DNA of 64,000 nt, from the IMG/VR virus record IMGVR_UViG_2778261505_000002, one strand, 5' to 3'. Shown here piece after piece: positions 13,560 through 55,201 of this stretch. Every line of letters starts with the position of its first letter. Positions within the stretch are counted from its first letter, which is position 1. The notes below the pieces were generated by a model that searched no databases, had not been told where the DNA came from, and was given only the letters and a program-made list of their open reading frames with translations. Both the position numbers and the translations under genes were made by a program. This DNA comes from a virus. Lineage: Duplodnaviria; Heunggongvirae; Uroviricota; Caudoviricetes.

Positions 13560-13877
13560 GTATTCCTCCTGATGGCCGTGATGTAGGAAGGCCATCAATC
13601 TCCTCTGTTCAAACTGAGTTTTCGACTCAAAAATTACTTTAAAAGGCTATAGCCCATTACGTGTGCATTATCAAATTGTGTACGGCATATCACCGTACTT
13701 GTAATATAGAGGTCATTGTTACTTTTTTCAACAGACAAATACAAGCTATGTTTGCCAATTGTTAATCACAACCTACCATTTAACCTTTACACCGCAGCCG
13801 TAGGCATTTAGGCTATATCACATATAAGAAAACAAGTTGTTTCAGACGATAATTATATACGCAAAGGGAACTCTCCA

Positions 13878-14546
13878 ATGACCAAGATCTTTGTGGTTGG
13901 CGGCACAAAGGGCGGGCCTGGCAAATCCACCGTTGCCCAGCAAATTGCCGTTTGCCTGAAAGTCAAAAAGAAGAAGAAGGTTTATATTACCGATATAGAT
14001 ATTCAGCGCACGACAACGAGCTGGTGTGAAGACCGTCGACAGAACGAAGACCTTGAGCTGATTCCTTTTGCATACGTTCAGGATGACATCATTAAGCACC
14101 TAAAATCGCTTCAGGGTAGAGCTGAGTTTGTAGTGGTAGATGCTGGTGGCTTCGACTCCGAAATTCAGCGACAAGCGATGCTGATGGCTGACGTTATCAT
14201 TATCCCGCTGCGTCCTAAGCGTCGTGATTTGAAATCTTTACGTGACATCGATCCTATTATCGACAATGTTCGCAATGTAAACGATAAAGTGAAGGTCCGC
14301 GCGGTCATGAACCAGTGCCCGGCTTTGCCATCACAAGTGTCTCGCATTCTGGCGGCTAAAGAGATTGTTGAGACGTTTGGAATCGAGTCTGCGCCAGTCA
14401 ATCTATATAACCGCAACGTCTATGATGATGCGGAAGAGTCTGGTCGTTCTATCTTTGAAATGACCGGTAGCGAGCGCGACAAAAAGGCGGAAGCCGAGTT
14501 TGAAGAATTTGTAGATTATCTGTTGAGTCTGGAGGAAGAAGAATAA
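13878..14546 (+). CDS. parA: ParA-family partition ATPase
   Basis: Deviant Walker A (GGTKGGPGKST); 222 aa; followed by a small basic ParB/ParG-like gene whose start overlaps the parA stop. Confidence 0.85.
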   Translation: MTKIFVVGGTKGGPGKSTVAQQIAVCLKVKKKKKVYITDIDIQRTTTSWCEDRRQNEDLELIPFAYVQDDIIKHLKSLQGRAEFVVVDAGGFDSEIQRQAMLMADVIIIPLRPKRRDLKSLRDIDPIIDNVRNVNDKVKVRAVMNQCPALPSQVSRILAAKEIVETFGIESAPVNLYNRNVYDDAEESGRSIFEMTGSERDKKAEAEFEEFVDYLLSLEEEE

Positions 14547-14905
14547 TGTCCATGAAAATGGGTGACCTAGCAAAGCGCAAAGAGCCTGATGCACCGGCTA
14601 AGAACACAACTCCTTTGCGCCAACCAGTCAGACCACAGGGACGCCCGACTCGTGGCAAAGAGAAAATTAAAAGCCGCACAATGTCACTGGAGGACGAATA
14701 CTTCGAACTGCTGGAGATGATGAAGTTCATCCCTCGCTTCGAGAAGTTCACTCGTTCTGACGTGATTCGAGCAGCCATTTTCCATCTGGCAGAGAAGTCA
14801 CCGCAGGAAATCGAGGACATCGTGAAATTGAATGAGGCGATCACCGCTGCCGATGTCACGATGCGTACCGATGAAATCAAACGAGAGTTGATGAAGAAAG
14901 GTTAA
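14546..14905 (+). CDS. Small centromere-binding partition protein (ParG/ParB-like, type Ib)
   Basis: 119 aa, basic N-terminal tail, operonic with parA (overlapping start/stop). Confidence 0.6.
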   Translation: MSMKMGDLAKRKEPDAPAKNTTPLRQPVRPQGRPTRGKEKIKSRTMSLEDEYFELLEMMKFIPRFEKFTRSDVIRAAIFHLAEKSPQEIEDIVKLNEAITAADVTMRTDEIKRELMKKG

Positions 14906-15892: not shown

Positions 15893-15998
15893 CTTTTAAA
15901 AGACACCACCAGAACAACTCCCTTCCGTTTCCACTTCCAAAAACTGCCACCAGTCGCTATCATCCGCTCATTGTGATAAGTAAGTAACTACCTACCAG

Positions 15999-16748
15999 GT
16001 GAGCCACATGAGCCAAATCTTTTTCGATACCATCGACAACGACCAGTACGACTTCATGACAGAGTGGAATACCGCTGTTATGGACAAGTGGGTCGCTGAA
16101 AACATTGGTTTGTCGCGCTGTAAAGACGAGGCTGAACTCTTCGAGACGAAGTGGTTTGATTACCGCGACATGCATCCTCTCATGGCCACCTGTCTTTTTA
16201 CGGAGGCATACAAACGTCAGTACTCAAATATCATGCTGACGCACGGTCGCGAACACTTTGAAACAGCTCCGTTCACCACCGGGTTAAAACGTCTGCCTTA
16301 TCAGGAGTTGTCGACTGCCAATAAAACGTCGCTATGGAAAGCACGCCAGTTTGCGGATCGCTATTGCTGCTCATACGACTACTTTATCTCCACCGTTCTT
16401 TCCGCAGCTGCACGACGGCTGTGGGACAAGCTGCCGCGCCCACAGCATTTATGGCAGCCAGAACTGATTGAGATATTTGAAGAGAAATTAGCCAGACGCG
16501 CAACAACCCGTCTGGATGACTCTCTGGTTAGCTTTAAGCATATGGGAGACATGCAGTTCAACCCGATTCAGGAAAGCTATTTTGAGTGGATTCTGGAGCG
16601 TTTGCGCACCATCCCTCGCAGCAAGCGCATACGCGCAATTTTCTCCGCTATCTGGCTAATGGAAATCGTTCCAGAGCGCCTTATTTCCGCCCACTTTCCA
16701 GAAGAACTGGAAGAAGCACGGCGGTTTATTGATCCCCTATCTAATTAA
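15999..16748 (+). CDS. Hypothetical protein (first gene of the replication block; possible helicase loader)
   Basis: 249-aa ORF directly upstream of the DnaB-like helicase; no motif recognised. Confidence 0.4.
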   Translation: MSHMSQIFFDTIDNDQYDFMTEWNTAVMDKWVAENIGLSRCKDEAELFETKWFDYRDMHPLMATCLFTEAYKRQYSNIMLTHGREHFETAPFTTGLKRLPYQELSTANKTSLWKARQFADRYCCSYDYFISTVLSAAARRLWDKLPRPQHLWQPELIEIFEEKLARRATTRLDDSLVSFKHMGDMQFNPIQESYFEWILERLRTIPRSKRIRAIFSAIWLMEIVPERLISAHFPEELEEARRFIDPLSN

Positions 16749-16791
16749 CTAATACTAGAAAACAATTTGTTTAAAAAACAAAGGAAAGCAC

Positions 16792-18132
16792 ATGACCGAA
16801 CTTTGCCATACAGGACGCGGGCTGTCCGAAGAATTTGATGAAGATTTCCAGAACAGACTGACGGCATATTTTTGTCGTGATCACGAGTTTCTTACTCGTG
16901 CGGGAGATCTGGTTGTGCCTAGCCAGTTTGCCAATGCGGCCAATGCCATATTGGTTAATATGGTTTCGGGCTATTACCGTATGTACAAGAGCGCGCCCTC
17001 TTCATCTGCAATTCTGGATATGCTTAAGCGTGCGAAACGCGATAAGACTATCCGTGAGGAACTATTCGCCGATGTTGTTGCTGCGTTTAAGCGCATCCTT
17101 GCAGAAAAATTGTCCGATACCTCGTACATGGTTGACCAGGTATCAACCTTCGCAAAAAGTGTAGCGTTTGATGATGCTCTGATTAAGGCTGCTGAACTGA
17201 AAGAGAAAGGCGACTTTCAGGGGGCGATGGCAATCATGGCCAAGGTTCAGCAGATTGGATCGAACGAAGCGACCGGAATCTATGACTACTACACCTCCGC
17301 AAGTGAGCGATTGAAAGCGCGTGAATATGAGGCTTCAGAGGAGTATGTACCAAACAGTATTACAACTGGACTCCCTCTTCTCGATAGGTTGCTGTACCAA
17401 AAAGGCTGGGCAAAGCGCGAAATGGTGCTCTTCATGGGGTTCGCTAAATCCGGTAAATCGACCGCAATGGGGGAGTTTTCCATAAACGCAACACTTGCTG
17501 GCTACAATGTTCTGTATCTCTCGCTGGAGGTTCACACCACCATTTTATCCGACCGTTTTGATGCAAGATTGTCGGAGACGGAAATGTCCAAGTTGGTGGA
17601 ACGGCGCGATGAAGTTCATCGTAAGTTGGCAGAGTTGGGAGCCTCTAAGGGGATTGGTAGTTTGTGGGTTGTTGAGCGTCCGTCAGGAAGTATGTCACCG
17701 GCAGATCTGGACCGTATGCTTAACAGTATGAAAGCCAATGGCATGGTGCCTGACATGGTTGTTGTCGACTACGCAGATTTGATGCGTGCCAGTTATGACC
17801 TTCGTGATGATCGCGCCAACATTCGTAGTATCTACACCGATTTACGTGCTCTTTATGACAAGCATAACGTTGCTGGGATCACGGCATCGCAGACAAACCG
17901 TGAAGGTGGCGCGTCAGAAGTTGCCACAATGATGCACGCTGCCGACAACATCGAAAAAGTACGTATTGCTGACCTGGTAATAACGATCAACAAAACCGAA
18001 GAAGAAGAAGCGAAAGGAGAGGCTCGTCTCTACTTTGCTGGTTCACGTAACCAGCAGGGAGGGATCAGCATTCGCGTTAAACAAAACCTCGAACAAATGC
18101 GCTTCATTGAGCGAATCTTAGACGTTACCTAA
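16792..18132 (+). CDS. Replicative DNA helicase (DnaB-like, RecA-fold C-terminal domain)
   Basis: Walker A GFAKSGKST, Walker B VVVDYADLM, and arginine-finger region (ASQTNREG). Confidence 0.8.
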   Translation: MTELCHTGRGLSEEFDEDFQNRLTAYFCRDHEFLTRAGDLVVPSQFANAANAILVNMVSGYYRMYKSAPSSSAILDMLKRAKRDKTIREELFADVVAAFKRILAEKLSDTSYMVDQVSTFAKSVAFDDALIKAAELKEKGDFQGAMAIMAKVQQIGSNEATGIYDYYTSASERLKAREYEASEEYVPNSITTGLPLLDRLLYQKGWAKREMVLFMGFAKSGKSTAMGEFSINATLAGYNVLYLSLEVHTTILSDRFDARLSETEMSKLVERRDEVHRKLAELGASKGIGSLWVVERPSGSMSPADLDRMLNSMKANGMVPDMVVVDYADLMRASYDLRDDRANIRSIYTDLRALYDKHNVAGITASQTNREGGASEVATMMHAADNIEKVRIADLVITINKTEEEEAKGEARLYFAGSRNQQGGISIRVKQNLEQMRFIERILDVT

Positions 18133-18213
18133 AAAATAAGCGTGGAGAACACCTCCACGCTTGATTCATTGGTGAAACAACTTTTCTTTTGCCAAACCAC
18201 AAAAGAAAAACAC

Positions 18214-19395
18214 ATGAGCCTTTATGTTATATCAACATTTAGGTTGGTCACAATATTGCCTGTTAAAAGTGGAATTATCGTGAGCGAGCTGAAAGAGCTA
18301 ATTACCGAATTAGATTTTGAACAATGGTTGGATACTGAAGGTATCGTTTATCGACGTGGAGGCGTGAGTGCTCGCGGTCGTGAAGTGAATATCAAGGAGT
18401 GTCCGGTATGCGGCAGCTCCAACTGGAAGGTATATTTCAATCTGACCAGTGGCGTCGGTAAATGCTTCGCTGGTGATCATCCCGAAGAGATTCAGTTCAA
18501 TAAGCTGGTCTTCCTCAAGCACTACAGCGGCAAATCACGACGACAGTTCGAGGAATATGTGCAGAACGCCCTTCTTTCCCAGGGGTGGGCACCAAAGAAA
18601 GAAGAGCTAGTGCTTGCAAGCACAGTCGAGTTAGAGGGGCCAGTTGCACTCCCTCGTCATTACGAGCTTCCTATAGATGGTCGTCTTCCAGACTATCTGG
18701 TTGAACGAAACATATCGCCTGAAATGGCAAAGTATTTTGACCTACGATACTGCGTCGAAGGCAAGCACGCCTATGTAGATCCGTATACAGATCAGGTTAA
18801 AGGACAGATATTCGATATGCGAATACTGATACCGGTTTACGATCTGGATGGGGTAATGAAGACATTTCAGGGACGAGACATTACCGGTACAGCAGAACGC
18901 CGCTACCTCTTTCCTATGCAGCTTCCAGCTTCAGGTAAATTTCTCTACAACGGCCATAATGCAGTCGGCAAACAGACTGTAGTTGTCTGTGAGGGTGCGT
19001 TCGATGTTATGGGGGTCAAACGAGCTATTTTCGACGAAGAAACATTACGTGATTACGTGGAGCCAATAGGAACGTTCGGGATGCATCTATCTGGCAACAC
19101 CACTCAGGATGCAGAAGATCAGTTGGGCGCGTTCCTGACGCTCAAGGCGCGTGGATTACGTAATGTGATCATGATGTGGGATAGTGAAAAGCAAGCTATA
19201 CGCAACACGATGGCCGCAGCCAGGCGACTGACCAGTATTGGTCTTAATGTCAAAGTGGCGTGTTTGGGCGAGGAAGGACTCGACCCGGGCGATGCAACGC
19301 CAGAGCAAATCATCAAAGCCTATTATCGGGCAAAACCGTATACCAAGCAGTTGGAGTTGCAAAGCAAGGTTTTGGGCATTAAGGCTCTATCATAA
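18214..19395 (+). CDS. DNA primase (zinc-binding + TOPRIM)
   Basis: CPVCGSS...CFAGDH zinc-ribbon-like motif and TOPRIM-like VVVCEGAFDVMG; start ambiguous (track ORF starts at 18142; 18214 carries the conserved AAAGAAAAACACATG context). Confidence 0.7.
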   Translation: MSLYVISTFRLVTILPVKSGIIVSELKELITELDFEQWLDTEGIVYRRGGVSARGREVNIKECPVCGSSNWKVYFNLTSGVGKCFAGDHPEEIQFNKLVFLKHYSGKSRRQFEEYVQNALLSQGWAPKKEELVLASTVELEGPVALPRHYELPIDGRLPDYLVERNISPEMAKYFDLRYCVEGKHAYVDPYTDQVKGQIFDMRILIPVYDLDGVMKTFQGRDITGTAERRYLFPMQLPASGKFLYNGHNAVGKQTVVVCEGAFDVMGVKRAIFDEETLRDYVEPIGTFGMHLSGNTTQDAEDQLGAFLTLKARGLRNVIMMWDSEKQAIRNTMAAARRLTSIGLNVKVACLGEEGLDPGDATPEQIIKAYYRAKPYTKQLELQSKVLGIKALS

Positions 19396-19470
19396 CAATC
19401 ACCTTCAAAATAAGTAGATGATTACTTATCTTTCTGTGAGAATACTTTCATCTGTTAGCTAGGAGTTGGT

Positions 19471-20253
19471 ATGAAAGACGAAATTCAGAAATTAGCCTGC
19501 GACATCATTGATAAAACTGGTTTAGAAATCAGCGAGAGCAATCGGCTAGACATCATTGAAAAAGCCGTAAAAACAGCAATGGATCATATCGCCACTCGTT
19601 TGGTCGAGATCCCGCTACCGGGGCTACCTTATCTGAAGGTTAAGTTACACGTATGGGGTGAACCTTCTTGTGCACGGCGTTCTGCATTAGTTGTTTTTAT
19701 TAGCAAAGAAAACCCGATCAGTCTTAAAGTGCAGGTTGGGGCATGGATGGATGGCAAAGTGATCTACACAAATACCGTTTTTTGTGCGTCAAATGACAGT
19801 ATTATTGAAGAGGCTATTCAAGAATCACTTCTAACTATGCATAGCTTATTTTTGCTGGAAGACAAGCAAAACTACGAAGAGTACTTACGGTCGATAAAAG
19901 GTGAGAGAACATTGTCACTTAAAGCCGATTTCGTTACCCCGACAAACCTGTTGGAAGTCTTGCTTAATAAAGGGGCTAATGATGCCGTAAATGTAATCAG
20001 AGAGAGTGAGTATGCGTCTCTTTGCGACATGTGCAAAAGCCAGTTGGATCTGGTGCATATCGTTATTGATGCTGGGAAGGCATGTGATGGCGTAATGGCG
20101 GAGTTTGCTGGGAAGATGGTCAGGATTGCTAACGAATTACCGATGATAGAGCAAGAGGCTAAATCATACGCCACCAATCATGTCACAGAGCTTCTTGTCC
20201 CCTATCGCTTAGAAAGCGATCAGCGCAAGATGATTAGCTGGGGAAGTTGGTAA
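19471..20253 (+). CDS. Hypothetical protein
   Basis: 260-aa ORF with upstream palindromic motif and GGAG RBS. Confidence 0.45.
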   Translation: MKDEIQKLACDIIDKTGLEISESNRLDIIEKAVKTAMDHIATRLVEIPLPGLPYLKVKLHVWGEPSCARRSALVVFISKENPISLKVQVGAWMDGKVIYTNTVFCASNDSIIEEAIQESLLTMHSLFLLEDKQNYEEYLRSIKGERTLSLKADFVTPTNLLEVLLNKGANDAVNVIRESEYASLCDMCKSQLDLVHIVIDAGKACDGVMAEFAGKMVRIANELPMIEQEAKSYATNHVTELLVPYRLESDQRKMISWGSW

Positions 20254-25064: not shown

Positions 25065-25066
25065 TT

Positions 25067-25095
25067 TTAACGGCTCACAGGAGCCGTTTTTATTC
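25067..25095 (+). terminator. Rho-independent terminator
   Basis: AACGGCTC-ACAG-GAGCCGTT followed by TTTTATT. Confidence 0.75.
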
Positions 25096-25274
25096 CCACC
25101 AAACTCACTCCCGTTTCCCTTAAAATTCAAAAAACAACGTCAAAATGATTCCATACCTACTATGTATGGAATCATTACTGAAAATGAGTTACTTTTACTC
25201 TTGATCCTATAAGAATCTATGCCTAATATACTGTTTACTTATACAGTGAATCGGCGTAACTCGGTGATTGTCAT

Positions 25275-26378
25275 ATGAAAAATAGCTTTGACAGAGCACG
25301 CGCTGCGGAGAACACCTCAAAAGAGGCGATTGAGTATCTCGAAAGAGCATCTCAAATGCAGGCCGTTATGATCTCGCAGGTTAGCAATGATATGAGATTC
25401 TCGGACGCATTCATGTTATTTACTCGCTTATCTCTGCTGATAACCAGACGTCGGCCAGAGATCGCTGTTCATTGTATTTTGATACATGTTTTGCCGCACA
25501 TTGCCGATGTAAAAGTAAGTGACATTAATAGGTTCATGGTGAACCAACTGGTCAACCCACTAATACTGGATGGCAAAATTGTTATGGGCCGCCGCGTTTT
25601 CTCTCTGATGAAGCAGTTCCTTAGCTGGTGCGCCTTCCAGGGGATGATAGACGTGTCACCGTTAAACGATATGTCACTTAACAAAGTTGCCGGTGGCGCA
25701 AAGCCCACACCTCGCGAGCGGAAGCTGACCGACGCAGAGGTATGGGTGTTCTGGAATATATGGGACTACTTCAATGTGTGCGCTGGTACAAAATGGGCGG
25801 CCAGGCTGTGTCTTGTATCCGCAAGACGACCTGACGAAGTACTGCGGGCTAAAAAAAGTGAGTTCAATCTTAAGCGTGGGGTTTGGAATCAAGGCAAGAG
25901 GAACAAATCTGCCCGTGAGCATTCGCTGCCTTTAAGCACATTAATGCGCACATGTATTGAAGAGTTGTTCGAATACGGTAAAGGCAGCCAGTGGCTCGTG
26001 CCTTCGAATAAAAAAATCGGGAAAGACCTTCCTATGTCTAAAGTGGCAATAGCCCAGGCATTACGTCGTATTCTGGAACGACCAGAACTGATGGAGCTTG
26101 AGCCATTTACACCCCGAGACTTGCGCCGTACTGCGCGTAGTTACTTCCCAGCATTAGGCATAAGCCAGGAGGTATCACGTAAAATCATGAACCACAGTCT
26201 TGAGGGGATAGATCGAGTCTACGACCGGCACGATTATATGGACGAGATGCGAGACGCCTTAGAAAGTTTCTCGACGTACATCGCATCAATCGTAGAGCAA
26301 CCGGATTTAGACGAAATTGACCACAAATTCAAGGGAGATCGTCTATCAACAGAGCTTATTCGTGTAAATTTTTCATAG
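25275..26378 (+). CDS. Tyrosine site-specific recombinase (integrase or resolvase)
   Basis: C-terminal catalytic-domain pattern (…RRPDEV…, FTPRDLRRTARSY, MNHSLEGIDRVYDRHDY) consistent with the R-H-R-Y signature. Confidence 0.7.
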   Translation: MKNSFDRARAAENTSKEAIEYLERASQMQAVMISQVSNDMRFSDAFMLFTRLSLLITRRRPEIAVHCILIHVLPHIADVKVSDINRFMVNQLVNPLILDGKIVMGRRVFSLMKQFLSWCAFQGMIDVSPLNDMSLNKVAGGAKPTPRERKLTDAEVWVFWNIWDYFNVCAGTKWAARLCLVSARRPDEVLRAKKSEFNLKRGVWNQGKRNKSAREHSLPLSTLMRTCIEELFEYGKGSQWLVPSNKKIGKDLPMSKVAIAQALRRILERPELMELEPFTPRDLRRTARSYFPALGISQEVSRKIMNHSLEGIDRVYDRHDYMDEMRDALESFSTYIASIVEQPDLDEIDHKFKGDRLSTELIRVNFS

Positions 26379-26759
26379 AGACTTTATGGCCTCAACAACC
26401 TTTTGTGATGCGCCTTTCTCTTTACCGAATCGCTCGTTATATGCAGCAAGAACCTGTTTTTCGTCCTCGTTAAGAGGAGCGGTGCCTTCTTTGTATAAAA
26501 ATGCTGCGAGTTCAGGTTGGCGTTCTTCCAGCACCATCATCATAAGACGACTTGGCTCAATACCCAGCGCCAGCGCCAACGGACGAACCTTATCGATAGG
26601 CAAAGGAATTTTGCCACTTTTAATTAAAGAAAGGTTGTTGGCATTTTTATAACCAATAAGTCTGGCTATTTGGGCCTGACTCATAGGTGAGGATTCAATC
26701 AGCCCTGCGATAAAAGCAGCATAGCGACTTTCTATAAATTCAATCTTGTTGTCAGACAT
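26373..26759 (-). CDS. XRE-family helix-turn-helix transcriptional regulator
   Basis: HTH segment (MSQAQIARLIGYKNANNLSLIKSGK); start set at internal ATG (track ORF extends to 26789); divergent from the downstream AT-rich region. Confidence 0.65.
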   Translation of the reverse strand: MSDNKIEFIESRYAAFIAGLIESSPMSQAQIARLIGYKNANNLSLIKSGKIPLPIDKVRPLALALGIEPSRLMMMVLEERQPELAAFLYKEGTAPLNEDEKQVLAAYNERFGKEKGASQKVVEAIKSL

Positions 26760-27010
26760 TGTTACAACCTTTGCGCGTTCAATTCTCACTGGTAAGTGCT
26801 TACCGATATTACATCAAAGGTTAGGGTTGTAAAGCTATTATCATTTTTTTCGATAGGCACTTAAAAGACCGGTTAAAGGCCATTGCACGGAGAAAAATTA
26901 GCCCAAAACAGGTAAGAAAATTAACTTGTATATGATATGAATGTATTCAGTATTGATATAAATTTTAGTAGTATTCCTTACCATAGTATAAGTTAGAATG
27001 GATTGATTGA

Positions 27011-27223: not shown

Positions 27224-27321
27224 CCCCTCTTCTCCCTGCGCGAATGGCTTAGTTCCCTGTTCGCGCAGTGCTACATTAAACACACTAGTAAATAATTTGT
27301 TTTCATAACAAAGGATTAGCC

Positions 27322-29430
27322 ATGTCTAAAAAACGTTCCATCAAAGAGGTTCAGGACTTCCGTGACAGTGTAAAACGAGTAGTCGCTCTCCTTTCAGGTA
27401 AAAACATCCCTGTTGCAGAACGAGGGGACGACGCTTATGTTCGCTATAACGATGATGGAGAGCCAATTCTCGTAAACATCCCATCAATCCCGGATAACGC
27501 AACACCGGCATTGATGAATGCTGTGCGCGGATTTCTCGATCATGAGGTTGCTCACATTTTGTTTACCGATATTCGTGTGTCCAACAAAATGAGAGAAAAA
27601 GGACGCGTTCCTTCCTGGTCGCTATGGAATGCCTTAGAAGACGTGTTCATCGAGCGAAAAATGGGTCAGGTCTTTAACGGAACAAGACGTAATCTGATGG
27701 CAACTCAGCGCCTTATAATCGAAAAAGTCTTTAAACCAAAGGCTTCAGAGGCTATTGCTTATTGTGGCAAAGATCAGCGCGCGCTTTTTCTAAACTTCTT
27801 TCTCTGTCCGGTTGTAAGAGCCTGGGATGGCCAAGCACCGTTCGTAGATTTCATGGATGAATATTGGCCTGTCATTGAGAAACCAATTTCATTATTAAAA
27901 GAACATGGTATCGATGTGGCCGTGCGTAACATGTCTTGCACCGAGGATTGTGTAAAGGTGGCTGCGACCATAGCTAAGATCCTCAAAGACACTGAAAGTG
28001 AAAGCAAAGGTAAGGAGTCAGCTCCGGGAAAAACTTCCGATCCTTCAGACGCTGACCAGACGGATGCCTCTGGAGAAAACAGTGAAGACAACGAAGATCA
28101 TGAGACACCCTCAGTGTTAGATAATCACAAATCTATCAAATCAGAATCACACAGTAAGCACAAACATGATAATAACGACAGTGATGATTCAGATAATTCT
28201 GAATCATCAGAAACAATATTCGATGATACAGAAAATGATAAAGAGGTATCAGATTCTGATGCTTCTGATAACGCGGCGTCAGAATCATTAACCGCTGACC
28301 ACGAAAAAAGAAAAACGACAGAAGACGGCTCTTCAGATATCCCAACTCCGTCAAAAATGAGTCTGGAAGAGGCTTTAGAGGAGTTGGATAGCATGGAAGA
28401 TGAAGTCGGAGGCATGACAGAAGATGCGCTATCCGAAACGATTAAAAGCGAGTTAACAGAAAGCTCGAAAAGCGAATACAGGCCATACAATCGCTCATAC
28501 GACTTCATCGGCTCGATTGATCAGGCAGAAGCCCATATCAAACGGCTTATTAAAACATTCTCCGATATTGATTTGGGAGGATATCCAATCAGCCGCTATC
28601 GCATCGTTCCTGAAGGCAACCAGCTCTTCGACAAATATATTGAAAAGCATCTTTCGTCAGGTGTTTCGTCGACGCTGGCAAAAGACCTGGAGCGAGCAAT
28701 AGCAAGCAGAAACAGAGTTCAGTTTATACCGGGCCAGCGTCGGGGGCGCATTCATGGTTCTAGTATCTACAGATTAGCAATGAATGATGCTCGCGTGTTT
28801 CGTAAAAAAGAAGAATCTAAAGCCGTTAACGCCTGTGTTCAACAAGTGATTGATTTATCAGGTTCAATGAGTGGTATAACGATACAATTGGCTCTTGCAA
28901 GTGCATATACCATCGCCGATGCCCTTGATCGAATAAATGTTCCCAACATTATCACCGGCTTCACTACATTTGGTAGTCATATGGCGGCAGGAGAACTTAA
29001 GGCTGTCAAGTATGAGTTCTCTCGCTTTGAATCTTTAATGCTACCTATCATCAAAAATTGGAATGAAAAGGTAAATTCTCGCGAAGTTCGCTCACGTATG
29101 GGGTGCGTAGGCTACACATTCCCACTTCTTAATAACGTGGATGGTGAAAGCATAGCCAGCCTTGCATCGTTATTTTCCGGTCGCTTGGAGGACAGGAAGA
29201 TCATGCTTGTTCTGAGTGATGGCGCGCCGTGGGCTGTTGGGAGAGGTTTTGACGCTCATTTGCGTTCAGTTGCGAAGCAAATTGAAACGCAGACTGATAT
29301 TGATTTGATGGCAATTGGCATCATGACTGACGCACCGGAGAGATTTTACTCAAATCATGCCCTGGTAACGAGCGTTGATAGTCTTGGTTCATCTGTAGTT
29401 ACTGAACTATCTCGTATCATTTTAAAGTGA
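27322..29430 (+). CDS. vWA-domain protein with acidic Ser/Asp-rich linker (CobT-like partner of an AAA+ ATPase)
   Basis: C-terminal MIDAS-type motif (VIDLSGSMSG ... LVLSDGAP); ~130-aa low-complexity acidic stretch (SDDSDNSESSE...); directly upstream of a MoxR/CobS-like AAA+ gene. Confidence 0.65.
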   Translation: MSKKRSIKEVQDFRDSVKRVVALLSGKNIPVAERGDDAYVRYNDDGEPILVNIPSIPDNATPALMNAVRGFLDHEVAHILFTDIRVSNKMREKGRVPSWSLWNALEDVFIERKMGQVFNGTRRNLMATQRLIIEKVFKPKASEAIAYCGKDQRALFLNFFLCPVVRAWDGQAPFVDFMDEYWPVIEKPISLLKEHGIDVAVRNMSCTEDCVKVAATIAKILKDTESESKGKESAPGKTSDPSDADQTDASGENSEDNEDHETPSVLDNHKSIKSESHSKHKHDNNDSDDSDNSESSETIFDDTENDKEVSDSDASDNAASESLTADHEKRKTTEDGSSDIPTPSKMSLEEALEELDSMEDEVGGMTEDALSETIKSELTESSKSEYRPYNRSYDFIGSIDQAEAHIKRLIKTFSDIDLGGYPISRYRIVPEGNQLFDKYIEKHLSSGVSSTLAKDLERAIASRNRVQFIPGQRRGRIHGSSIYRLAMNDARVFRKKEESKAVNACVQQVIDLSGSMSGITIQLALASAYTIADALDRINVPNIITGFTTFGSHMAAGELKAVKYEFSRFESLMLPIIKNWNEKVNSREVRSRMGCVGYTFPLLNNVDGESIASLASLFSGRLEDRKIMLVLSDGAPWAVGRGFDAHLRSVAKQIETQTDIDLMAIGIMTDAPERFYSNHALVTSVDSLGSSVVTELSRIILK

Positions 29431-39653: not shown

Positions 39654-39682
39654 CAGGCGTCCAGTTGGACGCCGTTTTATTC
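39654..39682 (+). terminator. Rho-independent terminator (GGCGTC hairpin family)
   Basis: CAGGCGTCC-AGTT-GGACGCC followed by GTTTTATT. Confidence 0.85.
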
Positions 39683-39732
39683 TCGTTATTATCACACACA
39701 AGAAAACAATTTGTTAAAAGGTTAAGTTAATT

Positions 39733-40557
39733 ATGCCCAACCACATTACAAACGAAATCCGAGTCATAGGTGGTACAAATAAACAACGCTTAGATTTCAT
39801 ACGTGCCATAACTAACAAAAAAGGTCTAATTGACTTTAATACCATTTGCAGACGTCCGAAAAGTATAGAAATGGAAGAAAACAATCATATCAGGCGCATG
39901 GCCTCTGCAATGGCGGGCGAAACAGTTTACGACCACATGTTCGGTGAATTAAAAACTCCAGAACAGGTCGAATTAGCTATGCGTGAATCAGGAATGACAC
40001 GCAAGGAAATTCGCAAAATCAAAGAGCAGGCTCTTATGCGGCTTGAGAATTATCGTCGCTATGGCTATTACTCATGGTTTGACTGGTCGCGAGCTAATTG
40101 GGGAACAAAATGGAATGCCTACAACATCGAAATGCCCGTAAAACGTATCCCTACACGTATTAAGTACGGCCATAATTTCCGCCATACACACGTTCGAGCA
40201 TATGCAAAACGAATCTATAAAAAACGTCTTGCAAGACATGCCGCAACTGGTGGTGAGTTGGTGATTCGCTTTGAAACAGCATGGTCTATGCCAAAACCAA
40301 TTTATCAGGCGATGGCTAGAAAGTTCCCGCACCTTGAGTTTGTAATACGTTATGCAGACGAAGACTTCGGCAATAACTGCGGATTCATTTTACTTCGCAA
40401 CGGCAAATGGGAATATGACTACATTGCACCGGCGAATAACGAACAATCGTCAGAAGAAAAAATCAAATGGTGCAAGTTCGCCTTTGAGTTATGTTGTCCT
40501 GGTATCACTCCACAAGAATACGGTCTAAATGAAAAATACGAATACGCCGGATATTAA
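39733..40557 (+). CDS. Hypothetical protein (Trp-rich SWFDWSRANWGTKWNA motif)
   Basis: 274-aa ORF preceded by the AAAACAATTTGTT palindrome; family not recognised. Confidence 0.45.
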   Translation: MPNHITNEIRVIGGTNKQRLDFIRAITNKKGLIDFNTICRRPKSIEMEENNHIRRMASAMAGETVYDHMFGELKTPEQVELAMRESGMTRKEIRKIKEQALMRLENYRRYGYYSWFDWSRANWGTKWNAYNIEMPVKRIPTRIKYGHNFRHTHVRAYAKRIYKKRLARHAATGGELVIRFETAWSMPKPIYQAMARKFPHLEFVIRYADEDFGNNCGFILLRNGKWEYDYIAPANNEQSSEEKIKWCKFAFELCCPGITPQEYGLNEKYEYAGY

Positions 40558-53957: not shown

Positions 53958-53984
53958 GGTGGGGGATATCCCCACCTTCTCTTT
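53958..53984 (+). terminator. Rho-independent terminator
   Basis: GGTGGGG-GATAT-CCCCACC followed by TTCTCTTT. Confidence 0.7.
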
Positions 53985-54058
53985 GATTTGTAAGCCTTGT
54001 TTAAACACATAAGATAACAACTTGTTTAAACGCACCAAAAAAGAAAAAGGAAAAACAC

Positions 54059-55201
54059 ATGTCATATTCAACGTTCCGTTTGGGTGCTAATGATGCAACC
54101 AAAGAGCCTATGTTCCTCGGACAATCTGTCAACGTGGCACGTTACGATCAGCAAAAATACCGTGATTTTGAAAAGTTGATTGAACGTCAATTGTCTTTCT
54201 TCTGGCGGCCGGAAGAAGTTGATATTTCGAGCGATCGTATCGACTTCAACACGAAGCTGCGGGACCACGAACGTCACATTTTTCTGAGCAATCTCCGTTA
54301 TCAAACGTTACTCGATTCAGTTCAGGGACGTAGTCCAAATGCAACGCTGCTGCCGCTTATCTCTATTCCTGAACTGGAAACGTGGGTTGAAACGTGGTCT
54401 TTCTCTGAGACTATCCATAGCCGCAGCTACACCCACATTATTCGTGGCATGGTGGACGATCCGAGCATTGTTTTTGACGGTATTGTTACGGATGAAGAAA
54501 TCATCAACCGAGCGATCAGTATCTCTGCTGAATATGACAGGCTTTATGGGATGACCTGCGAGCGCCAGTCGTTAGGTGAGAAGGAATTTGAGCGTCTGTA
54601 CGTAAATGAATATGGCTGGGAGCCATACCCTTTGCATCGTCAGCTTTTCCGCACGTTGGTGTCCATTAATGCGCTTGAGGCGATCCGTTTCTACGTAAGT
54701 TTTGCATGTACGTTTGCCTTTGGTGAACGGAAGTTGCTTGAGGGTAACACCAAAATTATGCGCTTTATTGCCCGTGATGAAGCTCTGCATTGCGAAGGAA
54801 CTGAACGCATGATCCGCTTCATGCGTACCGGTCGCGAAGGTTTATTGTGGAAAGAGATTGCTGCTGATGAAGAAAACGTCATTTACGACACCATGAAATC
54901 AGTCGCCGAACAAGAAATGAACTGGGCAGACTATCTCTTCAAAGACGGTTCGATGATTGGTTTAAACGCGGATATTCTCAAAACCTATGTAAAATACCGC
55001 ACCAATCTGGCTATGAATCGTCTTGGCCTGAAGGCTTTATTTCCAGAAGTTACCACTGATCCGCTGGTCTGGATGAACAAGTGGTTGTTAACCGACACAC
55101 TGCAAATTGCGCCACAAGAGGCAGAGCAAAGCACATATCTGGTAGGTCAGATCGATTCTACCGTGGATAAGGCTTCTCTAAGCCAGTTTGCAGACCTGTA
55201 A
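54059..55201 (+). CDS. nrdB: Ribonucleotide reductase class Ia small subunit
   Basis: Di-iron/tyrosyl-radical motifs ([23 protein letters not shown]); N-terminus closely resembles enterobacterial NrdB as I recall it. Confidence 0.9.

Follow-up and report, generated by a model that had tools for sequence, protein, structure and literature searches.

Analysis of the window (the whole stretch of 64,000 nucleotides of viral DNA under study) revealed a short palindrome, AAACAA-n-TTGTTT, positioned just upstream of the start codons of five genes. This dyad is probably a DNA operator for an element-encoded repressor that acts on host sigma-70 promoters. It makes up the downstream half of a conserved cassette of promoter and operator, which is found in SSU5-type phage-plasmids before about twenty early, replication, partition and packaging genes and which most likely allows one element-encoded DNA-binding protein to switch them off jointly. 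This reading draws on the motif and its symmetry, on its fixed placement with respect to promoter elements and start codons, on its presence in divergent relatives, on the missing RNA structure and on early genes that are silent in a lysogen.

A sequence search with positions 16000 to 20000 of the window revealed 98% identity to Escherichia phage Cyrano and to CMS-2020a and approximately 81% identity to Salmonella phage SSU5. Cyrano and SSU5 belong to a class of ~105-kb SSU5-type phage-plasmids, and judged by sequence the window is an SSU5-like phage-plasmid. E. coli, Klebsiella, Enterobacter, and Salmonella commonly harbour such elements, and phage-plasmids have been reported to carry antibiotic-resistance genes. 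Four genomes were used for comparison, those of Cyrano and SSU5, the Klebsiella plasmid pFF979_1 and a syntenic Acinetobacter baumannii plasmid (NZ_CP096896.1). The window's helicase has homologues in 926 plasmid records, and it shares only 69% identity with the helicase of pFF979_1 and 38% with that of the A. baumannii plasmid. Expression data for the lysogenic state were taken from the RNA-seq analysis of a Cyrano lysogen (S1 Table of Misson et al. 2023, PMC9928086; median value of 9.8). A literature search for the AAACAA dyad motif and for SSU5/pHCM2 promoters yielded nothing relevant, and no published account of the promoters, operators or lysis-lysogeny circuit of SSU5-type phage-plasmids was found. 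The kind of feature is ordinary; in the SSU5-type group it is undescribed, and it is functionally constrained.

An earlier note, made from the sequence of the window, had reported a palindrome about 15 to 25 bp upstream of several start codons, with a degenerate copy at 27291. Motif scans, a 35-nt matrix and the SSU5 orthologue confirmed the palindrome at all five reported positions, including the degenerate one. The stretch from 16758 to 16779 reads gAAAACAATTTGTTTAAAAaac and is located 15 nt 5' of the ATG (16792) of a gene for a DnaB-like helicase. Scanning of the window with the 18-mer, allowing up to 3 mismatches, revealed 5 matches compared to 0.26 expected, and none of 100 shuffles reached 5. 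Four of these matches, all on the + strand, correspond to reported sites (13829, 16759, 39703, and 54014); the fifth (10352, - strand) looks like a chance match. When scored with an extended 35-nt matrix, the degenerate copy at 27291 falls among the other four (38 to 45 bits versus at most 16.5 for shuffles); this matrix is over-fitted in that it was built from the same five sites that it scores. The SSU5 orthologue of this site is a perfect palindrome. The 11-nt core alone, with 1 mismatch allowed, was found 6 times in the window versus 4.4 expected, which is not significant; the significance therefore comes from the longer conserved context and the position. All five sites are on the gene strand, with the centre of the palindrome 23 to 42 nt 5' of the start codon. 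The end of the 18-mer is 12 to 31 nt from the ATG, in rough agreement with the distance originally given. The description of the palindrome needs a correction, in that the conserved element is longer and asymmetric (TAATTAaCACcAacAAG-AAAACAAnTTGTTTa). The genes behind the five sites are parA and those for the DnaB-like helicase, a CobT-like vWA protein, a 274-aa DUF1281_C protein, and nrdB. The sites are organized as follows:

13786 to 13846, + strand: parA site, a putative promoter/operator with the -35-like hexamer TTTACA (13786 to 13791), a 17-nt spacer, the -10-like hexamer TAGGCT (13809 to 13814) and the perfect dyad AAACAAGTTGTTT (13830 to 13842); ATG at 13878.
16742 to 16776, + strand: helicase site, with the TAATTAAC box (16742 to 16749), AGA and the dyad AAACAATTTGTTT (16760 to 16772); ATG at 16792.
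27269 to 27302, + strand: CobT-like vWA site, with the extended -10 TGCTACATT (27269 to 27277) and the degenerate dyad AAATAATTTGTTT (27290 to 27302, 1 mismatch); ATG at 27322.
39656 to 39716, + strand: site of the 274-aa DUF1281_C gene, a full promoter-operator cassette with the dyad AAACAATTTGTTA (39704 to 39716); ATG at 39733.
54000 to 54027, + strand: nrdB site between nrdA and nrdB, with the TTTAAACAC box (54000 to 54008) and the dyad TAACAACTTGTTT (54015 to 54027); ATG at 54059.

The parA module is identical in Cyrano and SSU5. The helicase site is located in a 43-nt gap that follows the stop codon (16748) of the upstream ORF; no convincing -10 or -35 was seen there, and its dyad is kept in SSU5 and pFF979_1, with diverged flanks. 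An inverted repeat, CTGCGCGAA/TTCGCGCAG (27236 to 27268), lies directly upstream of the CobT-like site, whose orthologues in SSU5 and several IMG/VR records read TGATAAATT with a perfect dyad. At the DUF1281_C site, a terminator-like hairpin, GGCGTCCAGTTGGACGCC (39656 to 39673), contains the -35 hexamer TTGGAC (39665 to 39670), which is followed by a 16-nt spacer and a -10 hexamer, TATTAT (39687 to 39692), without TG. The same cassette (39656 to 39740) recurs at 58.5 kb in Cyrano (centre 58601, L002:8540-8640) before a different gene, CYRAN_58. The cassette is thus kept independently of its cargo, which suggests an exchange of gene cassettes behind a fixed regulatory module in genomes that are otherwise 98% identical. 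The nrdB site is positioned 3' of a hairpin (53961 to 53973), has no convincing -10, and is conserved in SSU5 (centre 70225).

The core of the element is a 6-1-6 dyad with near-invariant arms and a free central base. Alignment of the five window sites revealed that conservation reaches ~20 nt further upstream. The resulting module of ~60 bp consists of a -35-like hexamer, a 16-nt spacer, TGnGATAAT, ~13 nt, AGAAAACAAnTTGTTTA, a Shine-Dalgarno sequence, and the ATG, in this order. In 60 curated sites, each arm position is 88 to 100% conserved and the central base is random (A, 16; C, 17; G, 13; T, 14). Twenty-six one-sided arm changes were counted in these sites and no compensatory double change, which indicates that selection acts on base identity and not on pairing. 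The 60 sites thus show the two-fold symmetry and constant half-site spacing of a repressor operator, in which the bases themselves and not their pairing are kept.

Two types of sites were distinguished. On the gene strand, the sequence of promoter-type sites is AGA-AAACAAnTTGTTT-a; their dyad is often extended to AGAAAACAAnTTGTTTa and is centred 15 to 42 nt from the ATG. An extended -10 element (TGCGATAAT, TGAGATAAT, TGGTATTAT, TGGGAAAAT, or TGnGATAAT) ends 20 to 21 nt upstream of the dyad centre at 11 sites of the three genomes Cyrano, SSU5, and pFF979_1, and the same holds for 21 IMG/VR contexts. These elements have the composition of a sigma-70 extended -10 (TGn plus a hexamer with A2 and T6), which in the window was found only at 27269 to 27277. 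At several sites, a spacer of 16 nt with the conserved sequence GCCTTwT separates the -10 from a -35-like hexamer (TTGACG, TTGGAC, or TTTGTA). A generic sigma-70 consensus scan called none of these promoters because the -35 hexamers are weak; the promoter assignment is based on the recurrence of the TGn-extended -10 at a fixed offset. Assuming a start 7 nt after the predicted -10, the dyad centre would be at about +14, and the dyad would then be part of both the DNA next to the start point and the beginning of the leader.

In upstream-type sites, the element is inverted (AAACAAnTTGTTT-TCTgcc), and its TTTTCT flank occupies the -35 slot (approximately -38). The distance of the inverted copy from the promoter-type dyad downstream of it is exactly 51 bp, both in 10 of 10 IMG/VR contexts and in every pair of the three genomes. 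Since 51 bp corresponds to five helical turns, the paired sites face the same side of the DNA. Relative to the predicted promoters, the dyad therefore overlaps the core promoter or start, with an auxiliary site in helical phase. A second, distinct arrangement is a pairing at 25 bp, with two dyad copies before the terminase small-subunit gene in Cyrano (L001:50-100) and SSU5 (L124:50-100) and, in pFF979_1, before a gene that by synteny encodes polymerase III alpha; the locus given for pFF979_1 is L128:49740-49770. None of the five window sites has an upstream partner copy.

The proximity of the promoter-type sites to start codons (centre 15 to 42 nt before the ATG) would also be compatible with an RNA-level element in the 5' leader, 5 to 30 nt upstream of the Shine-Dalgarno sequence, which could be the target of a translational repressor or an AU-rich enhancer of the S1 type. 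We consider such an element unlikely. One site in pFF979_1 (centre 72610) suits it, as this site overlaps the last part of a coding region, has the next ATG 20 nt downstream, and shows no promoter features. The T7 gene 10 leader (TCTAGAAATAATTTTGTTTAAC...AAGGAG), which is used in pET vectors, is a translational enhancer. The leader ACTAGAAAACAATTTGTTTAA...AAGGA (16755 to 16790 and other promoter-type sites) resembles this T7 leader in ~17 of 21 positions. The resemblance could be a coincidence of AT-rich sequence or a convergence of AU-rich enhancers and is regarded as a lead only. A possible RNA-binding partner is present as well. All SSU5-like genomes examined encode a protein of the FljA family (PF03614), with homologues in SSU5 and pFF979_1, and the Cyrano protein CYRAN_114 (L003:780-1301, - strand, outside the window) matches Pfam Flag1_repress with an E value of 1e-80 and, weakly, an Hfq-like model. 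FljA-type proteins were reported to block the translation of fliC mRNA (PMC2652032), which made an operator in the leader worth considering.

Several observations speak against an RNA-level role. The upstream copies are inverted and are not part of leaders, as they precede the -10 and in some cases immediately follow a terminator hairpin. A dyad that is exactly symmetric, has a free centre and shows no covariation fits a symmetric DNA binder rather than the recognition of single-stranded RNA or of a hairpin. The five leaders fold no better than shuffles (z scores of -0.6 to +1.3), and in none of the minimum-energy folds are the two arms of the dyad paired with each other. An RNA hairpin was therefore ruled out, with folds at shuffle level and 0 compensatory changes. 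The FljA-like protein shares only 34% identity between Cyrano and pFF979_1 although the dyad is identical, no such dyad is present in the fliC leader of E. coli K-12, and the gene reaches only about 2 times background in the lysogen; these data weaken the FljA-like protein as the binder. The sites are not confined to 5' leaders, and they do not resemble the fliC leader in its E. coli K-12 version.

The FljA-family protein, annotated as a repressor of phase-1 flagellin, is encoded by every SSU5-like phage record found. Twelve of 14 phage tblastn matches belong to the SSU5-like group, and the other two are short, partial matches on small fragments. The protein evolves fast (34 to 87% identity), and inspection of its sequence by eye suggested two Sm/Hfq-like repeats. 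It may be a silencer of host flagellin or a phage RNA regulator.

The earlier note had proposed that the site overlaps the transcription start or 5' UTR and acts as an operator or in translational control. The placement is supported by the dyad centre at about +14 wherever a predicted extended -10 is clear. The operator is favoured by the 6-1-6 dyad, its free centre, the missing covariation and the inverted copy 51 bp upstream, whereas translational control is the weaker part of the proposal, given the lack of RNA structure and the upstream copies outside leaders.

The genome-wide motif scan that the same note had named as a check revealed ~18 to 20 sites in the whole replicon, 5 of them in the window. 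Exact 6-1-6 copies number 9 in Cyrano, 11 in SSU5, and 15 in pFF979_1, compared to at most 2 for every other 6-1-6 palindrome. With up to 2 mismatches, 27, 23, and 27 sites were found in Cyrano, SSU5, and pFF979_1, respectively, versus 7.7, 2.7, and 4.2 in shuffles. Inspection of the Cyrano annotation revealed that 17 to 18 of 18 sites are intergenic and that the promoter-type sites are all on the gene strand. At orthologous sites (helicase, parA, CobT-like, nrdB, and terminase), SSU5 and pFF979_1 have kept the dyad together with the AGA next to it, whereas the surrounding noncoding DNA diverges; the terminase small-subunit gene is preceded by a dyad in all three genomes. Shuffles, conservation in divergent relatives and fixed geometry together rule out a chance or AT-rich artefact. 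A comparison of the site list with the annotation revealed no dyad sites near repA, so that replication iterons were rejected as an explanation. The regulon of replication, partition and nucleotide-metabolism genes proposed at first has to be widened, as the majority of sites belong to the terminase operon and to a cluster of early genes that is not part of the window. The paired promoters and the strongest-looking single-operator promoters cluster at 93 to 98.5 kb in Cyrano, outside the window, where short ORFs of unknown function each have their own promoter.

This part of Cyrano (93 to 99 kb; L002:43000-49000) contains ~10 short ORFs, most of them behind dyad promoters, and CYRAN_107 behind a TAAGT-type site. 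Early host takeover is presumably the function of this region. For CYRAN_105 and CYRAN_110, the start codons given in the annotation are probably wrong, since they precede the promoter-operator cassette or fall within it. A large, poorly coding region at 94.3 to 95.2 kb (L002:44300-45250), which is conserved in SSU5 (L125:40380-41500), contains several degenerate dyads and half-sites, e.g., AAGAAAACAACTGAATAACA. Its ORF, CYRAN_103, is at the detection floor of the RNA-seq data, and the region may be a regulatory or noncoding RNA locus.

A count of palindromes in the whole A. baumannii plasmid revealed no AAACAAnTTGTTT. This plasmid carries 24 copies of another 16-bp palindrome, ATCAGTCAGTACTGAC, which on inspection are located in gaps between genes and often abut TATACT (-10). 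The absence of the dyad and the presence of an own palindrome in this relative make a universal host factor unlikely, and the pattern argues for element-encoded, coevolving regulators instead. We know of no consensus among the E. coli regulators considered (LexA, NrdR, PurR, Fur, PhoP, and IHF) that matches the dyad. The A. baumannii plasmid also encodes a 179-aa Hfq-domain protein directly upstream of the helicase gene.

Early genes whose promoters look strong (CYRAN_101, CYRAN_103 to CYRAN_108, and CYRAN_110) had values of 5 to 17 in the Cyrano lysogen, compared to the median of 9.8 (PMC9928086, S1 Table). These low values are consistent with active repression, for which the dyad promoters are candidates on the indirect evidence of early genes at lysogen background. 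The parA operon was expressed moderately (50 to 89 versus the median of 9.8), with a value of 89 for the gene of the ParA partner (PMC9928086). Since parA carries the dyad and is expressed nevertheless, repression at this promoter would be partial at best. The helicase gene reached 21.1 versus 6.2 for the gene upstream of it, and nrdB reached 12.9 versus 7.6 for nrdA (PMC9928086). The most highly expressed Cyrano gene in the lysogen by far, CYRAN_43 (about 7000 versus the median of 9.8; PMC9928086), encodes a 184-aa hypothetical protein and is missing from the window at ~25065 to 25275, where the coordinate offset between the window and Cyrano jumps by ~800 bp.

The small expression step-ups at the helicase and nrdB genes could alternatively reflect positive control, with the block cAtAAGAAAACAAnTTGTTT conferring promoter specificity on a phage-modified host RNA polymerase or serving a middle-gene activator and with the start inside or just after the dyad. 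The helicase, nrdB, and terminase sites have no good sigma-70 -10 at the standard offset, although the block (TTAAACAC)...AGAAAACAAnTTGTTT is retained there; if transcription began within the dyad, a Shine-Dalgarno sequence could be accommodated even at the closest genes, and the -38 position of the upstream copy is near that of class II activators. However, neither an RNA polymerase nor a sigma factor is annotated in Cyrano and SSU5, and the upstream copies, being inverted, would have to drive transcription in the reverse direction, towards the terminator that precedes them. Initiation at the best sites is already explained by canonical extended -10 and -35 elements with a constant offset, and for these promoters a centre at +14 is a repressor position. 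Positive control is accordingly rated as quite improbable.

Among the findings that count against the operator model are the following: the helicase and nrdB sites, two of the five in the window, have no convincing -10, and the dyad is also located at the 5' end of the mRNA, which is compatible with an RNA-level role. From the evidence as a whole, we infer the transcription start points, a repressive effect and an element-encoded binder and propose the following mechanism. The operator would be located just downstream of the start point (~+14) in a family of host sigma-70 promoters. An element-encoded multimeric protein bound to the dyad would block initiation or promoter escape. At the strongest early promoters, the protein would probably occupy both sites, 51 bp apart and the upper one over the -35, cooperatively and thereby clamp the core promoter. 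The outcome would be coordinate silencing or shut-off of the early host-takeover genes; the internal promoters for the helicase, nrdB, CobT-like, and parA genes and for the terminase operon would be silenced as well.

The best candidate for the binding protein, on a speculative basis and unproven, is the partner of ParA, which is encoded in the parA operon:

13878 to 14905, + strand: parA (13878 to 14546), encoding a small Walker-type ParA ATPase, and the gene of its 119-aa partner (14546 to 14905).

The ParA protein has 222 aa, matches Pfam MipZ, AAA_31, and CbiA, and has no N-terminal DNA-binding domain, as is typical of type Ib systems; its match to the NCBIfam model ParA_partition (E = 2e-33) is below the model's curated cutoff. 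The partner is favoured because it is expressed in the lysogen (89), because a dyad is located at the operator position of its operon, because parA lacks a repeat array of the kind that could act as a conventional centromere and because the partner has a conserved segment. This putative DNA-reading segment, RPQGRPTRGK..IKSRTMS[LIM]EDE, is conserved among relatives that are only 49 to 51% identical overall. Inspection of the 280 bp upstream of parA revealed no repeat array, only one dyad (13830 to 13842) and a degenerate half-site, so that the array of binding boxes next to parA, known from type Ib systems, was not observed. Sequence searches of solved structures with three candidate regulators and a fold comparison for the ParA partner were uninformative. 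Tentatively, and with considerable doubt, the ~20 palindromes could be sites of the ParA partner that form a dispersed centromere, with the same protein, produced in the plasmid-prophage state, clamping early lytic promoters through the -38/+14 pairs. If true, one centromere-binding protein would couple plasmid segregation to silencing of the phage program, a KorB-like logic in an unrelated protein family, and this family is known only from SSU5-type elements.

A purely centromeric function, with parS-type sites for ParA, no role in transcription and positions dictated by the available noncoding DNA, appears highly improbable. The perfect dyad in the parA promoter without a repeat array upstream, the conserved putative DNA-reading segment of the partner and the four separate inverted-repeat centromere sites of the prophage-plasmid N15 (PMC7205306) would agree with it. 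However, sites placed merely in free DNA would not be expected to keep a constant distance of 20 nt from the -10, to be paired at 51 bp on either side of core promoters or to have strand-specific flanks, and SSU5, which was isolated as a phage, keeps all sites.

Other candidate binders of the operator were considered. The CYRAN_45-type HTH repressor (26373 to 26759) is unlikely, since SSU5 lacks it and the pFF979_1 version shares only 48% identity; in the control region of the CYRAN_45 homologue, AAACAAnTTGTTT is missing and the inverted repeat is another one, of the TAAGT type. The wHTH-like proteins CYRAN_37 and CYRAN_123 and two ParB_N proteins are conserved; their genes are silent in the lysogen, and they therefore cannot maintain repression there. 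A role of these proteins in lytic shut-off is still conceivable. The RHH-like protein CYRAN_117 is expressed in the lysogen but was rejected because the strand that would read the DNA is not the same in the three genomes, and a near match of the motif in its start codons is not conserved. The HTH (XRE-like) repressor gene at 26373 to 26759 (- strand) adjoins the integrase gene and is expressed at ~10 times background in the Cyrano lysogen. Its control region (26793 to 26863) contains the inverted repeat TAAGTGCTTACCGA/TCGATAGGCACTTA of the TAAGT-type family, and the integrase-repressor module is missing entirely from SSU5.

A second palindrome, gATAgGTAAGTAnnTACTTACcTATc, is commoner than the AAACAA dyad, was found in about 15 intergenic gaps of the window, and is probably the first motif of the earlier note. 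Its 16-nt matches in the window start at the following positions:

5855, 11233, 15976 to 15995, 19410, 22932, 29448, 35031, and 38551.
43054, 43385, 46888, 51572, 56289, 61124, and 63338.

A scan with 3 mismatches revealed several dozen matches each in Cyrano, SSU5, and pFF979_1, with overlapping registers counted. This palindrome is sometimes located within very short gaps, e.g., between the genes for the terminase large subunit and the portal protein, and in some cases precedes -10 elements resembling TGTATAAGAT. A stable RNA hairpin would be expected of it, in contrast to the AAACAA dyad, and its function could be that of a hairpin in mRNA processing or stability or that of a repressor operator. 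Together, the two palindromes provide a concrete map of regulatory sites in SSU5-type phage-plasmids. The AAACAA dyad delimits a probable early-gene regulon and supplies short DNA probes with which the regulator could be fished out and induction studied.

Comparison with known systems indicates that the dyad system, as far as its sequence tells, is a member of none of the P1 C1, KorA/KorB, N15, and lac families. Phage P1 has a ~100-kb genome with dispersed C1 operators, and its operator is an asymmetric 17-mer, ATTGCTCTAATAAATTT, which is bound by a monomer. P1 resembles the present case as a phage-plasmid in which one repressor acts on many scattered operators before lytic functions, including a DnaB-type helicase gene. 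It differs in that a strict 6-1-6 dyad, often paired at -38/+14, is found here and no C1 homologue was seen.

The centromere sites of N15 lie near regulatory regions. As in N15 (SopB), a phage-plasmid centromere may consist of single inverted repeats at separate places without an array (PMC7205306). N15, however, has a type Ia ParB (SopB) and four sites, compared to ~20 here, and no fixed promoter geometry has been reported for it. Type Ib systems (TP228 ParF/ParG and pSM19035 omega) share a small Walker-type ParA and, encoded next to it on the 3' side, a small protein whose N-terminal tail is basic and flexible. Their binding site overlaps the par promoter, which results in autoregulation, and omega also controls several promoters. 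The parH site of TP228 is described as an array of degenerate 4-bp boxes (PMC3130281). The element studied here differs by a single 13-bp dyad at parA and ~20 dispersed copies, and an RHH fold of its partner would be hypothetical.

In the lac system, O1 is centred at +11, and the tet operator is a 15-bp dyad with a central base pair. The former resembles the present element as a dyad operator just past the start point and the latter in its central base pair, and auxiliary operators on the same face lead to cooperative repression; the sequences and proteins are unrelated, and here the auxiliary site overlaps the -35 region at a distance of only 51 bp. In RK2/RP4, the KorB operator OB is a 13-bp 6-1-6 palindrome (TTTAGC-S-GCTAAA), the operators number ~7 to 12 per plasmid, and KorB doubles as the partition protein ParB. 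The KorA/KorB system and the SSU5-type elements thus have in common short, repeated palindromic operators that coregulate replication, partition, and other backbone operons, whereas they differ in sequence and in the type of element, in the fixed +14/-38 positions found here and in the link to partition, which in the SSU5-type elements is only hypothetical.
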